In this document: in pieces, positions 1 through 9,300 of the stretch
Numbering within the stretch: the first letter of the stretch is position 1
How the letters are laid out: each line of letters begins with the position of its first letter
From: an uncultured Anaerolineae bacterium
GTDB taxonomy: Bacteria > Chloroflexota > Anaerolineae > Aggregatilineales > Aggregatilineaceae
DNA length: 25,485 nt
NCBI GenBank assembly: GCA_965554365.1
Contig: CBEVZO010000001.1
Location: forward strand, 1 to 25,485
Reading direction: 5' to 3'
Notes under the pieces: generated by a model
What the model saw: only the letters and a program-made list of their open reading frames with translations
Database searches by the model: none
What the model was told of the DNA's origin: nothing
Translations under genes and position numbers: made by a program

Positions 1-2178
1 ATGCTCACCCAGCGCCAGGAACTCGCCCACTGCCAAATCGAGATCGAGCAGGTCGAAATACTCGTCACTGAGGAACACGACCTCGACCGGGATCATGTCG
101 TCGGCGTTGTAGAGCGTGTCGATCCACACACCATCACGCCACACGAATGTGCGATCCCCGGCGTACAGCACCTGTTGTCCGTATGCGTTGGCGTCGTGAC
201 CTTCGTAGTATCTATCCCCGTCGGTGGGTGCGTTACCGCCGCCACCGGCTTCGCCAGCCTCGCGGGCCGCGTTTGCCTGTGTGGTTGATGTTGGTGCAGC
301 AGGCATAGGGGCTTCTGCGTCGGCGAGTCCGGCAGTGGTTTCAGCCGCACCAACTGCATTCGCACCGGATACCGCGTCAAACGCTTCGTCGGTTTCCGCC
401 TCGAACACCGTTTGCGCTTCTTCCACCCCGGTCTGGGTGAAGATGTCGTCTTCGGTAATCAGGAACGAGGTGTAGGGCGTGATGATGCCGTAGCGGATGC
501 TGAGGCGCACAATACTCTCGACCAGTTCAGGGTCTTCGCCGTGCCACCGGATCGCGTTGAGCAGCGCGCCGATTTTGCGCGTGGCCCACAGGCGCGGGAT
601 GAAGACCTCGCCGCCTGCGTTGGCACGGAAGCGCACCTCGTAGATGTACGATTTGCGCGCGCCTTCGAGTTCGCCGCTCAGACGCACGGTAGCCCATCCG
701 TCATCACGATAACGGCCCACGACAATCAACTGTGTGCCCACGAACAGATCCGGCAGCGGCGCATCAGGGTACATATCCTCGATCCGCACGCCGTCTACTT
801 CCAGTTCCACATTGGTCAGCACGGGGGAGTTGATCTTGGTGTAGAGGCTGCTCACTTCCTCGTCGATGCGCTCATCAGGCCGCACATACGTTCCCGCGCC
901 TCCGAATGCTTGATACAACTGGTCCAGCAGGAAAGTGTCCACGTCATCGCCCACGCCAAAGGTGAAGATGCGCACGTTACGTGGCGCGGAACGCTCCACG
1001 TTTTCCAAAATCTCGGCGGAGTCGGTTTCGCCCTCGGTGGGGAGGCCATCGGTCAGGAACAACACGACGGTTGAGCGCTCGCGGTCGGCCATGTTCATGG
1101 CTTCATTTAATGCGCCGTCGATGTCTGTGCCGCCGAGCGCCTCCAGGCTATTGACCCACTCTGTCGCCTCGCGCGCTTCAGCGACAGGTTGGAGATCGTC
1201 GGCAAAGACGCGCACGCCGGTGCTGAATACCACCACGTTAAAGCGATCATACCGGTTGAGATTGTCTAGCACGAAGGCCACCGCATCACGCGCTTGGTCC
1301 CACTTGTCGCCGTACATTGACCCGGATTGGTCCAGCACGATGATCACGTCTTTGGGGATCACGCGGTCTTCATCGACGGTGAAGGGCGGGGTGATCATTA
1401 GTGTGAAGAAGCCGTCTTCCCGCGCGCTCTCACGGTAGGTGAGCAGATTCACGTCGATCTCATCGGTCGCCAGCCCGTAGTAGAGGCTGAAATCCGTTTC
1501 CGGGCGCACAAAGGTCGCTTCGTATCCGGCACGAAACTCAAAGTCGCCGTCGCGCGAGATGGCGATGGGGTGCGTGGGCGAGTAGATTGTGCTGATCGGG
1601 TCGTTGGACTCGACGCTCACGCTGATGCTGATCTGCTCTACTGGGCGGCGGGTCAGATGATCGGTGCGCAGCGGATATTCGTAATGCACCAGCCCGTTTT
1701 CGACCGGCAAAAGCTGTGCGTATTCGATCTCGATTTTCACTTCCGAGTGCGGCAGGATCGGGAACACGCTGGCCTGAATCGCACCCGCGCCCACATATTC
1801 CAGCAGGGCGGGATCGCGCATCTGGCGCACAATCTGATCGTAGATTTCGCGCGCTTCGTCGGCGTCCAGAATGTTCGCTTCAATCGGTTCGCCGTTGACC
1901 CACATGATCAGGTCGGATACGGCTGCGCCTATCGGCAGCGGGAACACATACGTTCCTTCTTCCATCCAATCGTTGTGATTGGCGAATACTTGCTCGATGC
2001 GCGTGGTGGCGACTTGATTGTCGATCTCTACGCTGACGTGATGCGCTTCGATGACCACACCACGTTGCGCTTGCGAAAGCTGCATGGGGGCCTGGGGCGC
2101 GGATTGATGTGCCAGCGCCGGGCTAACCCCGATCAGGACCAGCGCCACTAAGACCAGTAACGTCACTGCACGTTTCAT
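1..2178 (-). CDS. Secreted VIT + von Willebrand factor A domain protein (inter-alpha-trypsin-inhibitor heavy-chain-like); 3' end lies beyond the left edge
   Basis: Absent from the ORF track (no stop in window); segments translated by hand, all in one frame. ATG at 2178 with AGGAGG RBS. Signal peptide MKRAVTLLVLVALVLIGVSPALA. VIT-like segment HVSVEIDNQVATTRIEQVF...EGTYVFPLP...RDPALLEY. VWA MIDAS DVIIVLDQSGS (~1318-1350), GGTDI, LFLTDG, FGVGDDVDTFLLD. C-terminal RTFVWRDGVWIDT. Confidence 0.92.
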   Translation of the reverse strand, partial: MKRAVTLLVLVALVLIGVSPALAHQSAPQAPMQLSQAQRGVVIEAHHVSVEIDNQVATTRIEQVFANHNDWMEEGTYVFPLPIGAAVSDLIMWVNGEPIEANILDADEAREIYDQIVRQMRDPALLEYVGAGAIQASVFPILPHSEVKIEIEYAQLLPVENGLVHYEYPLRTDHLTRRPVEQISISVSVESNDPISTIYSPTHPIAISRDGDFEFRAGYEATFVRPETDFSLYYGLATDEIDVNLLTYRESAREDGFFTLMITPPFTVDEDRVIPKDVIIVLDQSGSMYGDKWDQARDAVAFVLDNLNRYDRFNVVVFSTGVRVFADDLQPVAEAREATEWVNSLEALGGTDIDGALNEAMNMADRERSTVVLFLTDGLPTEGETDSAEILENVERSAPRNVRIFTFGVGDDVDTFLLDQLYQAFGGAGTYVRPDERIDEEVSSLYTKINSPVLTNVELEVDGVRIEDMYPDAPLPDLFVGTQLIVVGRYRDDGWATVRLSGELEGARKSYIYEVRFRANAGGEVFIPRLWATRKIGALLNAIRWHGEDPELVESIVRLSIRYGIITPYTSFLITEDDIFTQTGVEEAQTVFEAETDEAFDAVSGANAVGAAETTAGLADAEAPMPAAPTSTTQANAAREAGEAGGGGNAPTDGDRYYEGHDANAYGQQVLYAGDRTFVWRDGVWIDTLYNADDMIPVEVVFLSDEYFDLLDLDLAVGEFLALGEH

Positions 2179-2338: not shown

Positions 2339-3334
2339 GTGCATCGCTATTTGATTGACTGGTTACAGTGCCCCGCGTGTCATGCGTCGCTGACGTGGAC
2401 GCTGAGCGAAACTATTGATGATTGTATCGAAACTGCCGAGGCACGTTGTATCGGCTGCGCTGCGGTGTATCCCGTGCGCGAGGGCATCGGTGTTTTTCTG
2501 ACGCCCGATCTGCCACGTAACGATCTGTGGGAACACGTAGACAGTGGATTGATGCGCCATTTACGCGAGAATCCAGATGTCGAACGCGCGTTGATGGATG
2601 GACCGACGGAAACGTTGAGTCCCACCGACCGGTTTTTTCGTATGATGGTACTGGAAGAACGTGGGCAGTTCGAGGCGGCACGGGCGCTCAAAGACTGGAC
2701 GCTGCCTGCGCTGTACACCAAAGCGTACAACCTGGGATGGCAGCAGCAAACGGAGTATGTCATCGACCAACTGCGTAAAACCAGCGTGCCGGTGGTTGAT
2801 CTGGCCTCTGGGCGCGGCTATCTGGTGGAGCAGGTGGCGCGACAGTTGCCCAACTATGTTGTGGCGACAGATTTCAGCCCACGCGTGTTGCGCCGCAACC
2901 AGGCGTTGTGGCGGCATTTCGGGTTGTGTGACCGTGTGAGCCAGATCGCGTTTGATGCGCGCCGTACCCCATTCAAGAACGGGGCTGTCAGTGTGATGAC
3001 AAGCAATCTCGGTTTGCCGAACATTGAACAACCCGGCAATCTGGTGCGCGAACTGCGGCGCGTGGTCGCCGAGCGATTGTTGTCGGTGATGCACTTTTTC
3101 CCTGAAGATGACGCTACCCATGCAGGTCCGATCCGTGAGCATGGTTTGGACACTATGTTATATGCGCGGCGGGCGTTGGCGGCGTTTGGATCTGCGGGGT
3201 GGCAGGTGGTGTTGGAAAATGCGTTTACAGGTCCGGCCAGCCCCACGCCGCACGGCGATATTATCCCTTCTGGCGTAGATGGGCTGCCGGTAGCAGATAC
3301 AATGTTGACCTGGGCTGTGCTGGTGGCACATTGA
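2339..3334 (+). CDS. Trm112-like Zn-ribbon fused class I SAM-dependent methyltransferase
   Basis: GTG start with TAGGAG RBS. N-terminal LQCPAC...CIGCAAVYPVREGI resembles Trm112. SAM motif I VVDLASGRGY, followed by VVATDFS, FDARRTPF and post-II SNLGL. Confidence 0.82.
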   Translation: MHRYLIDWLQCPACHASLTWTLSETIDDCIETAEARCIGCAAVYPVREGIGVFLTPDLPRNDLWEHVDSGLMRHLRENPDVERALMDGPTETLSPTDRFFRMMVLEERGQFEAARALKDWTLPALYTKAYNLGWQQQTEYVIDQLRKTSVPVVDLASGRGYLVEQVARQLPNYVVATDFSPRVLRRNQALWRHFGLCDRVSQIAFDARRTPFKNGAVSVMTSNLGLPNIEQPGNLVRELRRVVAERLLSVMHFFPEDDATHAGPIREHGLDTMLYARRALAAFGSAGWQVVLENAFTGPASPTPHGDIIPSGVDGLPVADTMLTWAVLVAH

Positions 3335-3364
3335 CCAGATCATTTGCAATGAAGGACAGTCACG

Positions 3365-4579
3365 ATGCCTGAACATCACACGTTGGTTGAACTGGATGCT
3401 GCGCGGTTGATGGACGACGTGCGGCAGTTAAGCGTTGAGATTGGCCCGCGTCCGGCGACAAGCCCCGCAGAGCATGAAGCAGCCGATTATCTGCACGCTC
3501 AGTTATGCAGCGTGAATCCCCACTGGGAACTGCTTACGCAGACATTTCGCAGCTTGGACGGATTCCGTTACCGTATTGCGCCATTGGCGTTTCTGGCAGG
3601 CTTGAGCTTGCTCGTCGGACTGCGCCGCGACCGTGAAACGCAAATTACTAGCGGGCTGTTTTCAATTGCGTTGAGCATTCTCAGCCGCGATGCGTTTCTT
3701 GCGCGCCCGGCAGTGTGGGAGGAGTGGCTGCCGCGCGGGGCATCACAGAATGTGATCGTGCGCATTCCGCCGCGTCGCCGCATCGACCGCCGGATTGTTT
3801 TTGTGGCGCACATGGATTCAGGTGTGCATCGCCTGACCACCACACCAGGTGTGGCGCGCCACCTACCACGCACGCTGGGCGGCATTACCTTGATGGCGTT
3901 GGTGGGCGGTGTGCTGACGGCGCTGTCGGGACGCAACCAACGCTGGCGCGAAATCCGTGCGTTGATCGCGGCGTCGGCGCTGGCCGGGTCCGGGCTGGCA
4001 ATGGTAGACGAAATGGGGGCCAAAGTTGCCGGGGCGATTGGCAATGCGTCCGGTGTCGCGGCGCTGATGGGATTAGCGCGCACCCTGCACGCTCGTCCCG
4101 CGAACTCCACCGAAGTGATCCTCGCCTTCACGGGCAGCGCGACCGCTGTCTCGACTGGCGCGGATGTGCTGGCGACCGAGTACGGCAAGGCGTGGAAAGA
4201 TGCGCTGTGGGTGGTGGTGAACAACGTGGGGGCGGGTGAATTGTGCTGGGTGACACGGCACGGCATCAGCCCATACGCCTACTACTATCCCGATGACGAA
4301 GCGGTCAATGTGTTGGCACAGGTCGCGCAGACACGGCCTGATCTGGGGATGATGGGCAAGCAGATGTTGACAGTAGACGAGGTGGCGATCTTGCGCGACC
4401 GCGATCTACGGGCGGCGGCGTTGATGGCCTATGACCGTGTGACCGGTTTGCTCCCGCATTGGCGGCAGATCAGCGATACGGTGCATGAAGTGGAACCCGC
4501 CACGCTGGAACGCGCGGCTCATGCGTGTTGGACAGCGGTGCAGTTGGTCGATCAGGCTGATTCCTGGCCGTCTGCTTAG
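3365..4579 (+). CDS. Membrane-embedded M28-family peptidase homologue with degenerate active site (probable pseudoenzyme)
   Basis: [34 protein letters not shown], [12 protein letters not shown], EVILAFTG and SDTV give the M28 layout, with hydrophobic inserts. Most metal ligands are substituted (see findings). Confidence 0.8.
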
Positions 4580-6129
4580 CGACTATCTTCCAATGTGGAT
4601 GACGCTAACGACTGTTTGAGATTCCATAGACGTTCGGTCAGTGAGACATGGTAAATGTGCGGATTGACCAGGCGTTTCACGCCAGGGTCCAGGCGCTCGA
4701 CATCGTGTTCGCGGCGTGCGCGCATCGCTTCCACGTCCGGCAAATCGTACACCAGTTGCCCATCGCGCAGCACTTCGACCAGCAGCGGCTCAATCTCCGA
4801 GATATATTCTCGGTCGATGGTGCGGCTTTTGGTGTGACGGGTATGGTGACGCAGTACAATGGGGTCCGCTGTGCGCGGGTCTTCATCGTCCAGGCTCAGC
4901 AGATCGGCGGTGGCTTTGCCGCGTGCGTCATATACGCGCCACACGCTTTTGTGCCCCGGGTTTGGCGTTTTATCCGTCGAGTCGGAGAGCTTGATCGCCG
5001 GTTTCCACGTTTCTCCCTCACACACCGCGACCAGTTTATATACGCCACCTAGTGCGGGTTCGCCCCAGGATGTGACGAGACGTGTCCCCACCCCAAAGAC
5101 CAGTCGGTTGATCAGATGGTCTGCGTCTACGTCCCAGCGCGGTGCTTCGTCGCGAATCTGCGTGAGAATTTGCCAGATTACCAGTTCGTCCAGATTATTC
5201 GATAACACGATGAGCGTATCGGGGAAGCCCGCTGCATCGAGCATCTTCGCGGCCTGGATACTGAGATATGCCAGGTCGCCGGAGTCTAACCGGATGCCAA
5301 TCGGTTTGTGGCCTTTGCGGCGCAGTTCCTCAAACACGGTGATCGCGTGGGGCACGCCGCTGCCGAGCGTGTTGATCGTATCTACCAGCAACAAACAATC
5401 GTCGGGATAGACGTCGGCGTAGGCGCGGAAGGCGCTGAGTTCGCCCATGCCCAACGCCATGAACACCTGTACCATGCTGTGCGCGTGCGTGCCTTTGGGC
5501 GGATAACCGAGCAGGCGCGAAATCCCCACGTTAGACGTGAAATCTGCCCCGCCGATCAACGCGGCCCGTGTTCCGGCGTTTGCGCCTCTCCCTTGCCCGC
5601 GTCGCAGCCCGAACTCTATGATCAGTCGTCCGCGTCCGGCCCGGTGCATTCGTGCGGCTTTGCTCGCGACGAGCGTCTGATAATTCAGATGGTTCAACAG
5701 CGAGGTTTCTAACAACTGCGCCGGGATGATCGGACCCATCACGACGGTCAGCGGTGTGTGGGGATGGACCACGCGCCCTTCAGGGATGGCGTGCAGCGAT
5801 AGCCCCTCAAATGTGCCGTTGGCTGCGAGCCACGCCAGAAAATCGTCGTGGAATACGCGGTTTCCGGTCCCGGAGGTGATGCTACGCAGGTACTCGATAT
5901 CATCCGGCTTAAAGTGCGCGTCTTGCATCCAGTTGAGGAGCCATTCCAGCCCCGCATTGACACAGTACCCCGCTTGGTGCGCGCCATAGTCGGGATAGCC
6001 CCGAAAGAAATGGTCAAACTGGGCTTTGCGTTCGTGCAGCCCCGTGCGGAAATATAGTTGAGCCATCGTCAACTGATACAGGTCGGTGAAGAGGATACCT
6101 TCGGCCATGCGGCGTTCGTTCGGTTTCAC
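4576..6129 (-). CDS. pncB: Nicotinate phosphoribosyltransferase
   Basis: [36 protein letters not shown] and GGVYKLV are NAPRTase motifs. Start re-called to GTG 6129 (GGAG 7 nt upstream); ATG 6135 or 6108 are alternatives. The ORF-track start at 6387 overlaps the divergent gene. Confidence 0.93.
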
Positions 6130-6259
6130 ACGCATACTCCCATCAGTGCAGATGTGCGATGCACGCAGATTATCTCGCAATCTGCACCAGAGCGCACACT
6201 TTGTTTGCGTTCTGCGTGCATCTGAGCGGTAATTAGGGTGCATCAGTTGCATGATCGCC

Positions 6260-6288
6260 GGAACAAACTGCGCTGGATCGGCGTCTAG
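6260..6288 (+). promoter_or_regulatory. ECF sigma-type promoter for the alpha-2-macroglobulin gene
   Basis: GGAAC-AAACTGCGCTGGATCG-GCGTCT-AG, identical core and 16-nt spacer to the VIT-VWA promoter; 55 nt upstream of the GTG start. Confidence 0.7.
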
Positions 6289-6343
6289 AGTGCGACACCC
6301 TTTGTTTTCATGTCGCGAGAAAAATATGCACAGGAGAGGAACC

Positions 6344-9300
6344 GTGAGTCGATACCGTATCGTTTTGCAACGCAGTACACTGCTCATCGTAGCGGCGCTG
6401 CTATTAATTTTGGTGGGGCAGTCGTTTGCCCAGGAGGACCGCGATCCGCTGCCGCCGCACGTACTCGCCGTGATGCCATATCCGGGCGAGGAAGTGCTGA
6501 CGGATCAGCCGGTCACGGTGATGTTTGATCAGCCCATGCACCGGGCCAGTGTCGAGGCGGCGTGGTCGCTGGACCCTGCCGCGACGGGCACGTTTGCCTG
6601 GACCGATGACCGCACCTTGACGTTTCTGCCGGATGGCGGTTGGCAGCGCGCGACGCGCTATGATGTCACGTTAGGCATAGCGGCGCAGGCCGCCAACGAT
6701 TTGCCGTTTGAAGACACCTATACGTTTTACGTGCAGACGATTGGCTATCTCGAAGTCTCGGCGGTGATCCCCGCGCCGGATGCCGAAGGTGTGCAGGCCG
6801 ACGCAACAATCATTGTGTCGTTTAATCGCCCGGTGGTTCCGCTGGTGTCTACGGCGCAGCTTGACGATCTCCCCGATCCGCTGATTTTCGATCCGGCGGT
6901 GGAGGGGCATGGCGAATGGCTCAACACGTCAATCTACCAGTTTATGCCCAAAAAACCGTTGGCGGGCGGCACGACGTTCAATGTGACGGTGGATGCAGGG
7001 CTGACGGATGTGCTGGGCGCGACGTTGGACGAAGCGTATAGCTGGAACTTCAAAACACTGCCGCCCGAAATCCTCAATGTCTCACCGTACAACGGGCAGC
7101 AGAACGTGCGCCTGGAAAATGTGGTCAGCGTGCAGTTCAGCCAGCCGATGGATCGCCCCAGCAGCGCGGAAGCGTTTATTCTGACGCACAACGGCGAACG
7201 TGTGCCTGGGGTGTTTGAATGGGCTGACGATGACCGCAGTTTTGTCTACCGCCCGGACGCGAATTTCGAGATCGAGTCGGTCTACACGCTCAACATCGCT
7301 ACCTCTGCGCGCAATGCGTCCGGTGAATCCACGCTGGAGGAGGGACTGTCGTATGTCTTCATGACCGTGCCCTATCCCGGCATCGCCGATACCGAGCCGG
7401 ACAACAACGAGCGTGATGTGTATCCGGGTGACGGCGTGTGGATTTATTTCAAGTCGCCCATGAATACTGAGACGTTCGAGGGTAAGGCGGAGATCATCCA
7501 GCCTGAGGGCGTGGCATGGGAGCCAGTCGTTTATGGCGACAGCCTGTACATGCAGTTCGCCACGCAGCAGAACACGGAATACGTGATCCGCTTCAAACGC
7601 GGCGCAGAAGACGTGTATGGCAACGCGATTGAAACGGACTACACGTTCAGTTTCCGCACCGGGGAGATTGATGCCTGGGCGTCGCTGCCGTTTGGGGATC
7701 GCTTCATGATCACCAGCGCCTACCGCGATGATACGCGCATCGCTATGAGTGTCGCCGCGCAGCCTATTGTGAGCTTTGGGTTGTACGATGTCGTCGTCGA
7801 TGACTACGCTATCGCGATGCAGGGCTATTACTACTACGATGAAGACTATCCGCTCAAGAATCCTGCGCGACTTGTGCGTGCCTGGACCGAGCAGCTTGAT
7901 GCCAGCCCAGCCTTGCAGGGTGTGGACGAAATCCTGCTGGCGGCGCAGGGGGGCGGCAGGCTGCCGTTGGGCGTGTATTATCTGGAAGTGCAGCAGCAAG
8001 AGACAGATCGTTATGCGCAGCGGATGCACCTCGCGGTGGTAACGGCTAATCTGACCGTGAAACGCACCCCGAACGAAATGCTTGTGTGGGTAACGGATAT
8101 TGCGTCCGGTGCGCCGCTGGCGAATGTGCCGGTCAGTTTGTACACCCACGAGGGAACGCTATTGGGCGTCAACGGAACCGATGCGGACGGCTTGATGCGT
8201 TTGCCGGTGGATCTCTCGCCTACCGACAACGAATTCGCTTATGCAGTGGCACAGAGCGACGATGTGTTTGGTGTGTGGATGTCGTGGAATGAAGCTGACT
8301 TGCCCGATCAGTCTGGTTATCTGTACACTGACCGCCCGATCTATCGCCCGGCTGAGACAGTCTACTTCCGGGGCGCGCTGCGTGTCAAGGATGACACCAC
8401 GTACACCGTGCCGGACGTGAACACGGTGCATGTACGCATCGACGTGAACTGGGGCGGACAGTTGTTGTGGGAAGGTGATTTGCCGCTGACTGAGTTCGGG
8501 ACATTTGATGGCGAGATCGAATTGCCGGAGGATGCGCAGCTTGGTGAGGCGCAAATCTACGCCGAAGCCGGCGGGCGCTACTACGCGCACAGCTACTTCA
8601 CGATCTCTGAGTTCCGCGTGCCAGAGTACAAGGTAGAGGTGACGCCGGACTACGACGAGATTGTGCAGGGTGATCCGGCGCGGGCCGCGATCACCGCGTC
8701 GTATTACTTCGGCGGGCCGGTGAGCAACGCGGACCTGAATTGGAATGCGTATGGCGATGTGGCCTATTTCAACTATGCCGGGCCGGGGCGCTACAACTTC
8801 ACCGATAATACGCAGGACTACTTTAGTTGGTACTACGTGGGCGGCGAGAGCGCAATCACCGACGCGAATGGTACGGTGATCGCGGCGCTGGAAAACACCA
8901 ACGCGCCGTCGATCCGCCCGATGACGATCAGCCTGGAAGGGGAAACTTACGACGAAAGCGGCCAGTATATCAGCGGACGCACGACCATCCTCGCGCACCC
9001 GGCGAATGTGTATGTGGGGCTGCGCACCGACCGCTACTTCGGGCGCGAAGGGTCACCGGTCAACCTCGATCTGATCGTTGTCACGCCGGAAAGTGATCCG
9101 TTGGCAGATCAGAAGATCGAACTCACGGTCATCGAAATCCGCTGGGAACGCGTGCCGCTTGAAGGTCAGTTTGGGCGCTACGAGTGGGAACGCCGCGAGA
9201 TCGAAGTTGAGACGAACGAGGTGCGCACCGGGCCGGATGGCACAGCACAGTACAGTTTCACGCCGCCGCAAGCGGGCATCTACCGCGTGCGCGCCGTGAG

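Follow-up and report, generated by a model that had tools for sequence, protein, structure and literature searches.

An M28 peptidase homologue lacking most of its zinc ligands is conserved across one family of Anaerolineae and probably carries transmembrane hairpins within its catalytic domain

Introduction

What has been retained when a bacterial lineage keeps an M28 peptidase gene in which most of the metal-binding residues have been replaced? The loss of catalytic residues is common among peptidase homologues, and M28-fold pseudoenzymes such as the transferrin receptor and nicastrin are textbook cases in animals; those of bacteria are only listed as 'non-peptidase homologues'. A gene of this kind lies in a 25,485-nucleotide stretch of DNA (hereafter, the window) from an uncultured Anaerolineae bacterium of the family Aggregatilineaceae (GenBank assembly GCA_965554365.1, contig CBEVZO010000001.1). 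A previous inspection of the letters and the open reading frames, performed without database searches and referred to below as the sequence-only reading, described its product as an M28 homologue that appears to have lost four of five zinc ligands together with the catalytic glutamate, and considered it a maintained pseudoenzyme rather than a decaying pseudogene. Here we examine which positions were replaced, whether the gene is maintained, from which proteins it arose and what its product could do.

The gene and its reading frame

The features of the M28-like gene are as follows (positions in the window).

3351..3356, + strand: Shine–Dalgarno-like GAAGGA, 8 nt 5' of the ATG, read from the sequence
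3365..4579, + strand: CDS of the ligand-less M28 homologue, 404 aa plus stop, ATG start (ORF list and translation)
3365..3565, + strand: N-terminal part of the M28 core, residues 1–67, with two helices, the first strand and an IGPRP...E...A motif (secondary structure of the model)
3566..3697, + strand: hydrophobic helical hairpin 1, residues 68–111, model helices 68–84 and 90–111, a putative transmembrane pair
3698..3862, + strand: M28 core strands with the retained HxD motif (H149, codon 3809–3811; D151, codon 3815–3817)
3863..4012, + strand: hydrophobic helical hairpin 2, residues 167–216, model helices 167–187 and 195–216
4013..4576, + strand: C-terminal M28 core with replaced catalytic positions, the same columns in canonical relatives being D, EE, D/E and H
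4040–4042, 4139–4144, 4220–4222 and 4463–4465, + strand: the replaced codons of G226, A259-T260, N286 and R367 in the C-terminal core
4475–4477, + strand: codon of the retained D371 in the C-terminal core

The open reading frame had been described as full length and free of frameshifts, and it indeed runs for 404 codons from the ATG without a stop or an interruption. Its orthologues are 401–409 aa long and share its start region, and the N-terminal core (residues 1–67) aligns to the N-terminal helices of the Bacillus subtilis aminopeptidase BSAP in the family profile. Most of the motifs from which the loss of the zinc site had been deduced were found in the translation exactly where they had been placed: AHMDS contains H149 (codon 3809) and also D151; the Gly of GAIGNASG at codon 4040, G226, stands where the bridging Asp belongs; the EE pair has given way to GSAT at 4139–4144, the segment FTGSATAV supplying A259 and T260; and the Arg of WRQISD at codon 4463, R367 of HWRQISD, sits at the position of the last His. 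The fourth motif required a correction. VNNVG does replace the Asp/Glu ligand by Asn, but the aligned residue is N286 (4220) and not N287 (4223), which is without consequence, both residues being Asn.

Replacement of the zinc site

The di-zinc site of M28 peptidases, built from His, Asp and Glu residues, is summarised in PMC3426542. Where canonical members of the family read H-D, D, E-E, D/E and H-D, the protein studied here reads H-D, G, A-T, N and R-D. The five zinc ligands are a His, the bridging Asp, a Glu, an Asp/Glu and a second His; only the first is kept, as H149, and G226, T260, N286 and R367 substitute for the rest, while the general-base Glu, the first residue of the EE pair, has become A259. 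The proposed loss of four of the five ligands and of the catalytic Glu was thus confirmed.

A single-sequence phmmer search against PDB sequences returned no match, NCBIfam likewise gave none, and solved structures were reached by the family profile only; the residue equivalence was therefore built through relatives. We aligned 220 family members, all full length (340–460 aa) and sharing the architecture of about 400 aa, and 93 of them carry the canonical H-D-D-EE-D/E-H-D in exactly the columns that are degenerate here. The family profile matches B. subtilis YwaD/BSAP (6hc6) with an E-value of 3.4e-27, and in this alignment the site columns fall on AHYDS, PGANDNGSG, GAEELG, LDMVG and WYHTPED of BSAP, the known M28 ligand motifs. 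The fold matches described below are a third basis for the equivalence.

One may object that the losses are an artefact of alignment, and that the catalytic residues are present but were shifted by insertions. Such an artefact would be easier to imagine given the weak match to Pfam Peptidase_M28 (PF04389; 35.3 bits against a cut-off of 21.3, E-value 1.2e-8), whose best stretch covers only residues 215–389, and given the large insertions in the protein. However, relatives at 30–37% identity that carry the same insertions have the canonical residues in the same columns, the profile-to-PDB alignment concurs, and the residues flanking the replaced positions (G223, A224, N227, A228, S229, F255, T256, G257, V288, G289, W366 and D371) are invariant and in register, which excludes a register error. 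We regard this explanation as very improbable. H365 (codon 4457), which had been named as a possible alternative ligand, was also considered and set aside, being His in 52 and Asn in 31 of 89 clade members and hence not conserved.

From the replaced residues, we infer that the protein can no longer assemble a di-zinc centre or supply a general base, and its peptidase activity has most likely been lost.

Predicted fold and inserted hairpins

The structure of the protein was predicted by AlphaFold2 from a 150-row alignment with a pLDDT of 96.6 and a pTM of 0.94. Structural comparison using VIA-align recovered the aminopeptidase of Aeromonas (1rtq; Z 32.4, 266 residues, rmsd 2.6), that of Streptomyces griseus (1cp7; Z 30.8, 249 residues, rmsd 2.5) and human transferrin receptor 1 (Z 27.4, 276 residues, rmsd 3.1). 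Foldseek concurs with an M28 fold, with TM-scores by target of 0.74–0.79 to 1amp and 1xjo. The protein has both the M28 alpha/beta core fold and an above-cut-off Pfam match, and the alignment to any solved structure covers at most about 280 of its 404 residues. The scaffold had been called intact; this holds for the core, but two long hydrophobic helical hairpins are inserted within it.

Hairpin 1 has a mean Kyte–Doolittle hydropathy of 1.8–1.9 and no charged residues (0%), its distal loop (residues 87–93) is rich in Arg, with a net charge of about +2.9 in the clade, and a matching counterpart was not found among solved M28 structures. Hairpin 2 has a hydropathy of 1.6–1.7 and 0–6% charged residues, and lies between the HxD motif and the bridging-Asp motif, which are only about 10 residues apart in BSAP. 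Its distal loop, with a net charge of about +3, carries the pattern Q-R-W-R..R, with R193, W194 and R198 each conserved to at least 95% among clade members. Both hairpins align over their full length with canonical members at fixed positions, hairpin 1 lying before the NVI strand, and the four helices show a mean hydropathy of 1.2–1.9 and 0–7% charged residues across ligand-less, canonical and other degenerate members.

Hydropathy and charge counts indicate that the protein is probably a four-helix transmembrane protein. The C-terminal domain bears a net charge of about -10 in the ligand-less clade, and the Arg-rich distal loops are probably cytoplasmic, with the acidic M28 domain outside. The orientation is the weaker part of this proposal: a signal peptide is lacking, and the stretch that joins the two hairpins is basic as well (net about +5.7), which weakens the positive-inside argument.

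The same architecture was found in a broad family of proteins of about 400 aa that align end to end with the M28-like protein at 25–37% identity. The canonical part of this family is large (761 representative clusters at E-values up to 0.001; proteins P0098–P0253), is distributed among Chloroflexota, Actinomycetota and Bacillota, and is annotated just as 'M28 family peptidase'. The entire architecture recurs among model clusters, with a TM of 0.89 for those of Chloroflexota and of about 0.76 for unnamed ones of Bacillota; it was also recognised in Actinomycetota clusters by sequence features, and as the core within longer AlphaFold DB proteins. No functional name is attached to any of them. 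The AlphaFold DB matches are only 'M28 family peptidase' or unnamed entries, some of them 500–800 aa long. Searches of the AlphaFold DB Swiss-Prot and cluster sets revealed no characterised protein with hairpin inserts, and no publication describing a bacterial M28 protein that is inserted in the membrane or devoid of its ligands was found in a full-text literature search of incomplete coverage.

Conservation and selection

A conserved ligand-less clade, as would be expected of a maintained pseudoenzyme, does exist: about 90 orthologues with 58–90% identity were found in large protein collections. To describe its distribution more precisely, we sampled 36 species-level genomes, spanning more than 20 genera, from the GTDB family to which the window belongs. 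An orthologue is present in 34 of them. In 30 of these 34 genomes it is full length and 62–75% identical, with no stop in any copy; the other four matches are partial, being cut by a contig end or spread over more than one contig, and include one fragment with a stop. The two genomes without an orthologue match are 84–85% complete. Aggregatilinea lenta belongs to this family, its record L012 being identical to locus L065. Elsewhere in the class, no orthologue was detected in a sample of 200 genomes, which yielded only relatives at 27–37% identity. A few marine-sediment DNA sequencing runs share up to a third of the sampled words, and no RNA run is listed.

The ratio dN/dS had been expected to be below 1. 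The codon model GY+F3X4+G4 applied to 29 orthologues gave an omega of 0.084, an approximate value, since synonymous sites are partly saturated over this set (tree length 28.9 per codon). For the closest orthologue pairs, with dS of 0.3–0.5, the Nei–Gojobori method (NG86) gave an omega of 0.10–0.19. That omega is far below 1 for the M28-like gene is a robust result. The most telling control is offered by three genomes possessing both forms, between which the ligand-less copies are 62–72% identical and the canonical copies 47–56%, although the latter may not be strict orthologues. Altogether, the ligand-less gene is near-universal in one Anaerolineae family and more conserved than its canonical paralogue.

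The view of the gene as maintained rather than decaying is therefore upheld by the conserved clade, the omega of 0.084 and the lack of a stop in 30 full-length copies. The rival view, of a pseudogene in decay or of a reading frame that has simply stayed open under relaxed selection, could draw on the replacement of five of the six catalytic positions, some of them variable among orthologues, but is hardly credible in view of the same omega, the presence of full-length copies without a stop in 30 and partial copies in 4 more of 36 genomes, the many positions that are at least 95% conserved, the better conservation than that of the canonical paralogue in the same genomes, and the confident predicted structure.

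Paralogues and stepwise history

The possibility that an active paralogue exists in the genome, raised by the sequence-only reading, was not borne out: no canonical member of the subfamily was found in the window's own genome (89.7% complete), nor in 33 of the 36 sampled genomes of the family. In the other three (G213, G217 and G218), a canonical paralogue reading HDDEEEHD (loci L077, L080 and L083) is present beside the ligand-less copy. This distribution points to repeated loss of the presumably active form while the inactive form was kept.

On the maximum-likelihood tree, the ligand-less proteins form a clade with an SH-aLRT support of 100, nested within a clade of 25 rows (support 99) that consists of degenerate members only. 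The sister group belongs to another family of the same order (loci L072–L074; proteins P0111, P0112 and P0126) and reads H-D, D, (D or E)-T, D and R at the positions of the site. This sister form retains one zinc site in full (H, D, D), and roughly half of its members still have the catalytic Glu, or an Asp at that position; the lineage is possibly a mononuclear enzyme. Where the ligands of the second zinc were, it already carries Thr (for the ligand Glu) and Arg (for the last His), which makes T260 and R367 shared derived states. In the three genomes with two copies, the canonical ones cluster with canonical proteins of the order's other families in a separate, well-supported clade, so the ligand-less lineage is an old paralogous one, and, as judged from the sampled genomes, most members of the family, the window's included, have kept the ligand-less copy only.

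Individual positions are conserved to different degrees. Among the 89 members of the ligand-less clade, H149 is His in 88 and D151 is Asp in all 89. The positions whose residues were lost later vary freely: position 226 is Gly in 71, Ser in 9, Cys in 4, Ala in 2 and Asp in 2 members, position 259 is Ala in 75, Gly in 13 and Glu in 1, and position 286 is Asn in 33, Ser in 28, Ala in 19, Asp in 5, Thr in 3 and Glu in 1. The earlier changes are held, with Thr at position 260 in 88 and Arg at position 367 in 81 of the 89 members. Moreover, the degenerate clade as a whole has fixed E292, C294, W295, Y356 and R358, residues not conserved among canonical proteins; at position 295, the degenerate clade has Trp and canonical members have Tyr. 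By this phylogeny, the loss of the site in the M28-like lineage is old and stepwise.

The membrane hairpins, the stepwise history and the gained invariant residues are all additions to the sequence-only reading.

Neighbouring genes

The following features flank the M28-like gene.

1..2178, - strand: gene of a secreted VIT-VWA protein with an N-terminal signal peptide, its C-terminus cut by the window (translation)
2237–2263, - strand: ECF-type motif GGAAC-N16-GCGTCT, before the VIT-VWA gene
2339–3334, + strand: methyltransferase with an N-terminal Trm112p-like zinc ribbon, with the VIT-VWA gene on one side and the M28-like gene 30 nt downstream
4576–6387, - strand: nicotinate phosphoribosyltransferase (NAPRTase) ORF, listed with 603 aa, orthologues 517 aa
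6260–6286, + strand: ECF-type motif GGAAC-N16-GCGTCT, before a 2001-aa alpha-2-macroglobulin gene

The VIT-VWA gene, whose Pfam families VIT and VWA were identified at the orthologous locus L011, is located divergently upstream in 19 of 30 orthologous loci and is the sole recurrent neighbour; it does not adjoin distant homologues of the M28-like gene. No homologue of the methyltransferase occurs at this position in 29 orthologous loci, which suggests that its gene was recently inserted between two divergent genes whose pairing is conserved. Of the 30 loci, 7 retain the convergent NAPRTase gene downstream. A conserved operon partner for the M28-like gene was sought among these neighbours and rejected, the upstream methyltransferase being unique to this genome and the NAPRTase being present in only 7 of the 30 loci. 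Since NAPRTase orthologues have 517 aa and the listed frame has 603, the true start of this gene is probably downstream of the listed one. The stops of the NAPRTase and M28-like genes overlap by a few bases in convergent orientation.

The ECF-type motif occurs twice in the window, against 0.08 occurrences expected by chance, and precedes the VIT-VWA gene in 7 of the 16 orthologous loci in which that gene lies directly upstream (L043, L044, L047, L051, L052, L059 and L060). Co-regulation of the M28-like gene with the VIT-VWA and alpha-2-macroglobulin genes through this motif was considered and discarded. The motif never faces the M28 strand, and the linkage of the VIT-VWA gene to the M28-like gene is therefore positional only. 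A predicted complex of the M28-like protein with residues 26–450 of the VIT-VWA protein scored 0.00, which gives no answer either way.

Possible function

Taking together the observed fold, replacements, conservation, purifying selection and phylogeny, we propose with moderate confidence that the M28-like protein is a neofunctionalised, non-catalytic, membrane-anchored pseudoenzyme used for binding or scaffolding at the membrane surface. It descends from the widespread, uncharacterised membrane M28 enzymes of about 400 aa with intact sites. A first step replaced the ligand Glu by Thr and the last His by Arg, the state still seen in the sister clade, and a second step removed the catalytic Glu together with the bridging Asp and the second Asp/Glu. 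Meanwhile, E292, C294, W295, Y356, R358 and T260 were fixed, and the distal loops turned basic and became conserved. In the resulting protein, the hairpins would form a four-helix bundle, placing the former active-site cleft next to the membrane surface on the outside. The old substrate cleft could then bind a peptide end or an anionic group without catalysis, the cationic R367 taking the place of a zinc ion, and the protein may act as a receptor, anchor or scaffold. The sequence-only reading had suggested a peptide or lipid sensor, or a scaffold, as candidate roles.

The alternative that fares best is that the protein is still an enzyme with a re-modelled site, i.e., a mononuclear or metal-free hydrolase or transferase that acts on a membrane-proximal substrate using H149 and D151 together with T260, C294, E292 or R367. 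H149 and D151 have remained invariant in spite of the loss of their metal partners, and T260 is invariant exactly at the position of the former ligand Glu. The gained and conserved C294, E292, W295 and R358 would also be accounted for, and constraint as strong as that observed is typical of precise chemistry. Further conserved side chains that may contribute to a new metal or catalytic site are E216, H299, D338 and E339. In addition, the sister group keeps a whole zinc site (H, D, D), with the catalytic Glu or an Asp there in about half of its members, so that activity may have changed rather than stopped. However, positions 226, 259 and 286 of the former site drift freely within the clade, suggesting that the old centre is unused, and glutaminyl cyclases, in which the metal site is also reduced, keep exactly the ligands that are missing here. 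No M28-fold enzyme is known to work without the Asp/Glu/His set. We therefore consider a re-modelled enzyme unlikely, yet deserving to be kept in mind.

A more specific version of the proposed binding role, in which the bacterial pseudoenzyme works on the same principle as nicastrin or the transferrin receptor, is decidedly speculative. The protein would in that case be a receptor in the membrane, its inactive M28 ectodomain binding a free peptide terminus or an anionic ligand of the envelope, while the four-helix bundle and the conserved basic cytoplasmic loop Q-R-W-R..R would relay the signal or recruit a partner. Should this be true, the candidate partners would be an intramembrane protease, or an envelope module around the secreted VIT-VWA and alpha-2-macroglobulin genes, and the canonical relatives would represent an undescribed class of membrane-integral aminopeptidases of monoderm-type phyla.

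Whichever role the ligand-less protein plays, the locus provides an unusually clear series, consisting of an intact ancestor family, an intermediate with one zinc site, and a fully ligand-less gene that is near-universal in its family. This series is suited to asking how the cleft of a metalloenzyme is turned to another use, and the cultured carrier Aggregatilinea lenta makes such questions testable. It also draws attention to a large M28 family whose catalytic domain is probably threaded through the membrane by four inserted helices.

Comparison with known M28-fold proteins

A first comparison is with the canonical M28 family of about 400 aa, the direct evolutionary source of the ligand-less form, with which it shares the length, the architecture and equally hydrophobic hairpins. 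The canonical proteins differ in keeping H-D-D-EE-D/E-H, in having short and nearly neutral distal loops (net charge about +0.6, versus about +3 in the ligand-less clade), and in lacking the gained E292, C294, W295, Y356 and R358.

The co-catalytic di-zinc aminopeptidases of MEROPS family M28, clan MH (AAP of Aeromonas/Vibrio proteolytica, SGAP and YwaD/BSAP) have the same core fold as the M28-like protein, the same order of motifs (HxD, GAxDNxSG, xEE, D and WH...D) and a common N-terminal IGPR...E...A helix. By comparison with these enzymes, the protein has one of the five zinc ligands and lacks the general-base Glu. Unlike them, it has no signal peptide or PA domain, and its hairpins, of about 45–50 residues each, are found in no solved M28 structure.

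Type II glutaminyl cyclases are among the top Foldseek matches of the M28-like protein, and share with it the M28 fold and a reduced metal site, which in their case holds one zinc. They keep an Asp-Glu-His zinc site and the catalytic Glu, and have lost the first His and the second Asp. The M28-like protein keeps only the first His, the reverse of this pattern, and all four positions of the glutaminyl cyclase site are replaced, by G226, T260, R367 and A259.

Among eukaryotic M28-fold pseudo-peptidases, nicastrin and nicalin have no zinc site, are membrane-anchored and use their ectodomain for binding. Transferrin receptor 1 likewise combines an M28-type fold without a zinc site with a membrane anchor and an ectodomain that serves binding rather than catalysis, and transferrin receptors are placed within M28B as non-enzymatic members (PMC10794815). 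These eukaryotic proteins have a single-pass anchor together with PA/apical and helical domains, and they lost the site independently, in another subfamily. Features of the M28B lineage, to which the transferrin receptor and GCPII belong, are an apical (PA) domain set into the protease-like domain and a helical dimerisation domain at the C-terminus. The anchor of the M28-like protein, in contrast, would consist of four helices inside the catalytic domain, and a PA domain is absent: Pfam gave no match to one, and transferrin receptor 1 aligns only through the core, with a Z-score below those of the bacterial aminopeptidases. The likeness to transferrin receptor 1, nicastrin and nicalin is thus best described as an analogy of working principle, not membership of their lineage. 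What is new in relation to all these systems is an M28-fold pseudoenzyme in bacteria, putatively threaded through the membrane by inserts inside its catalytic domain and traceable to its enzymatic ancestors via an intermediate state.
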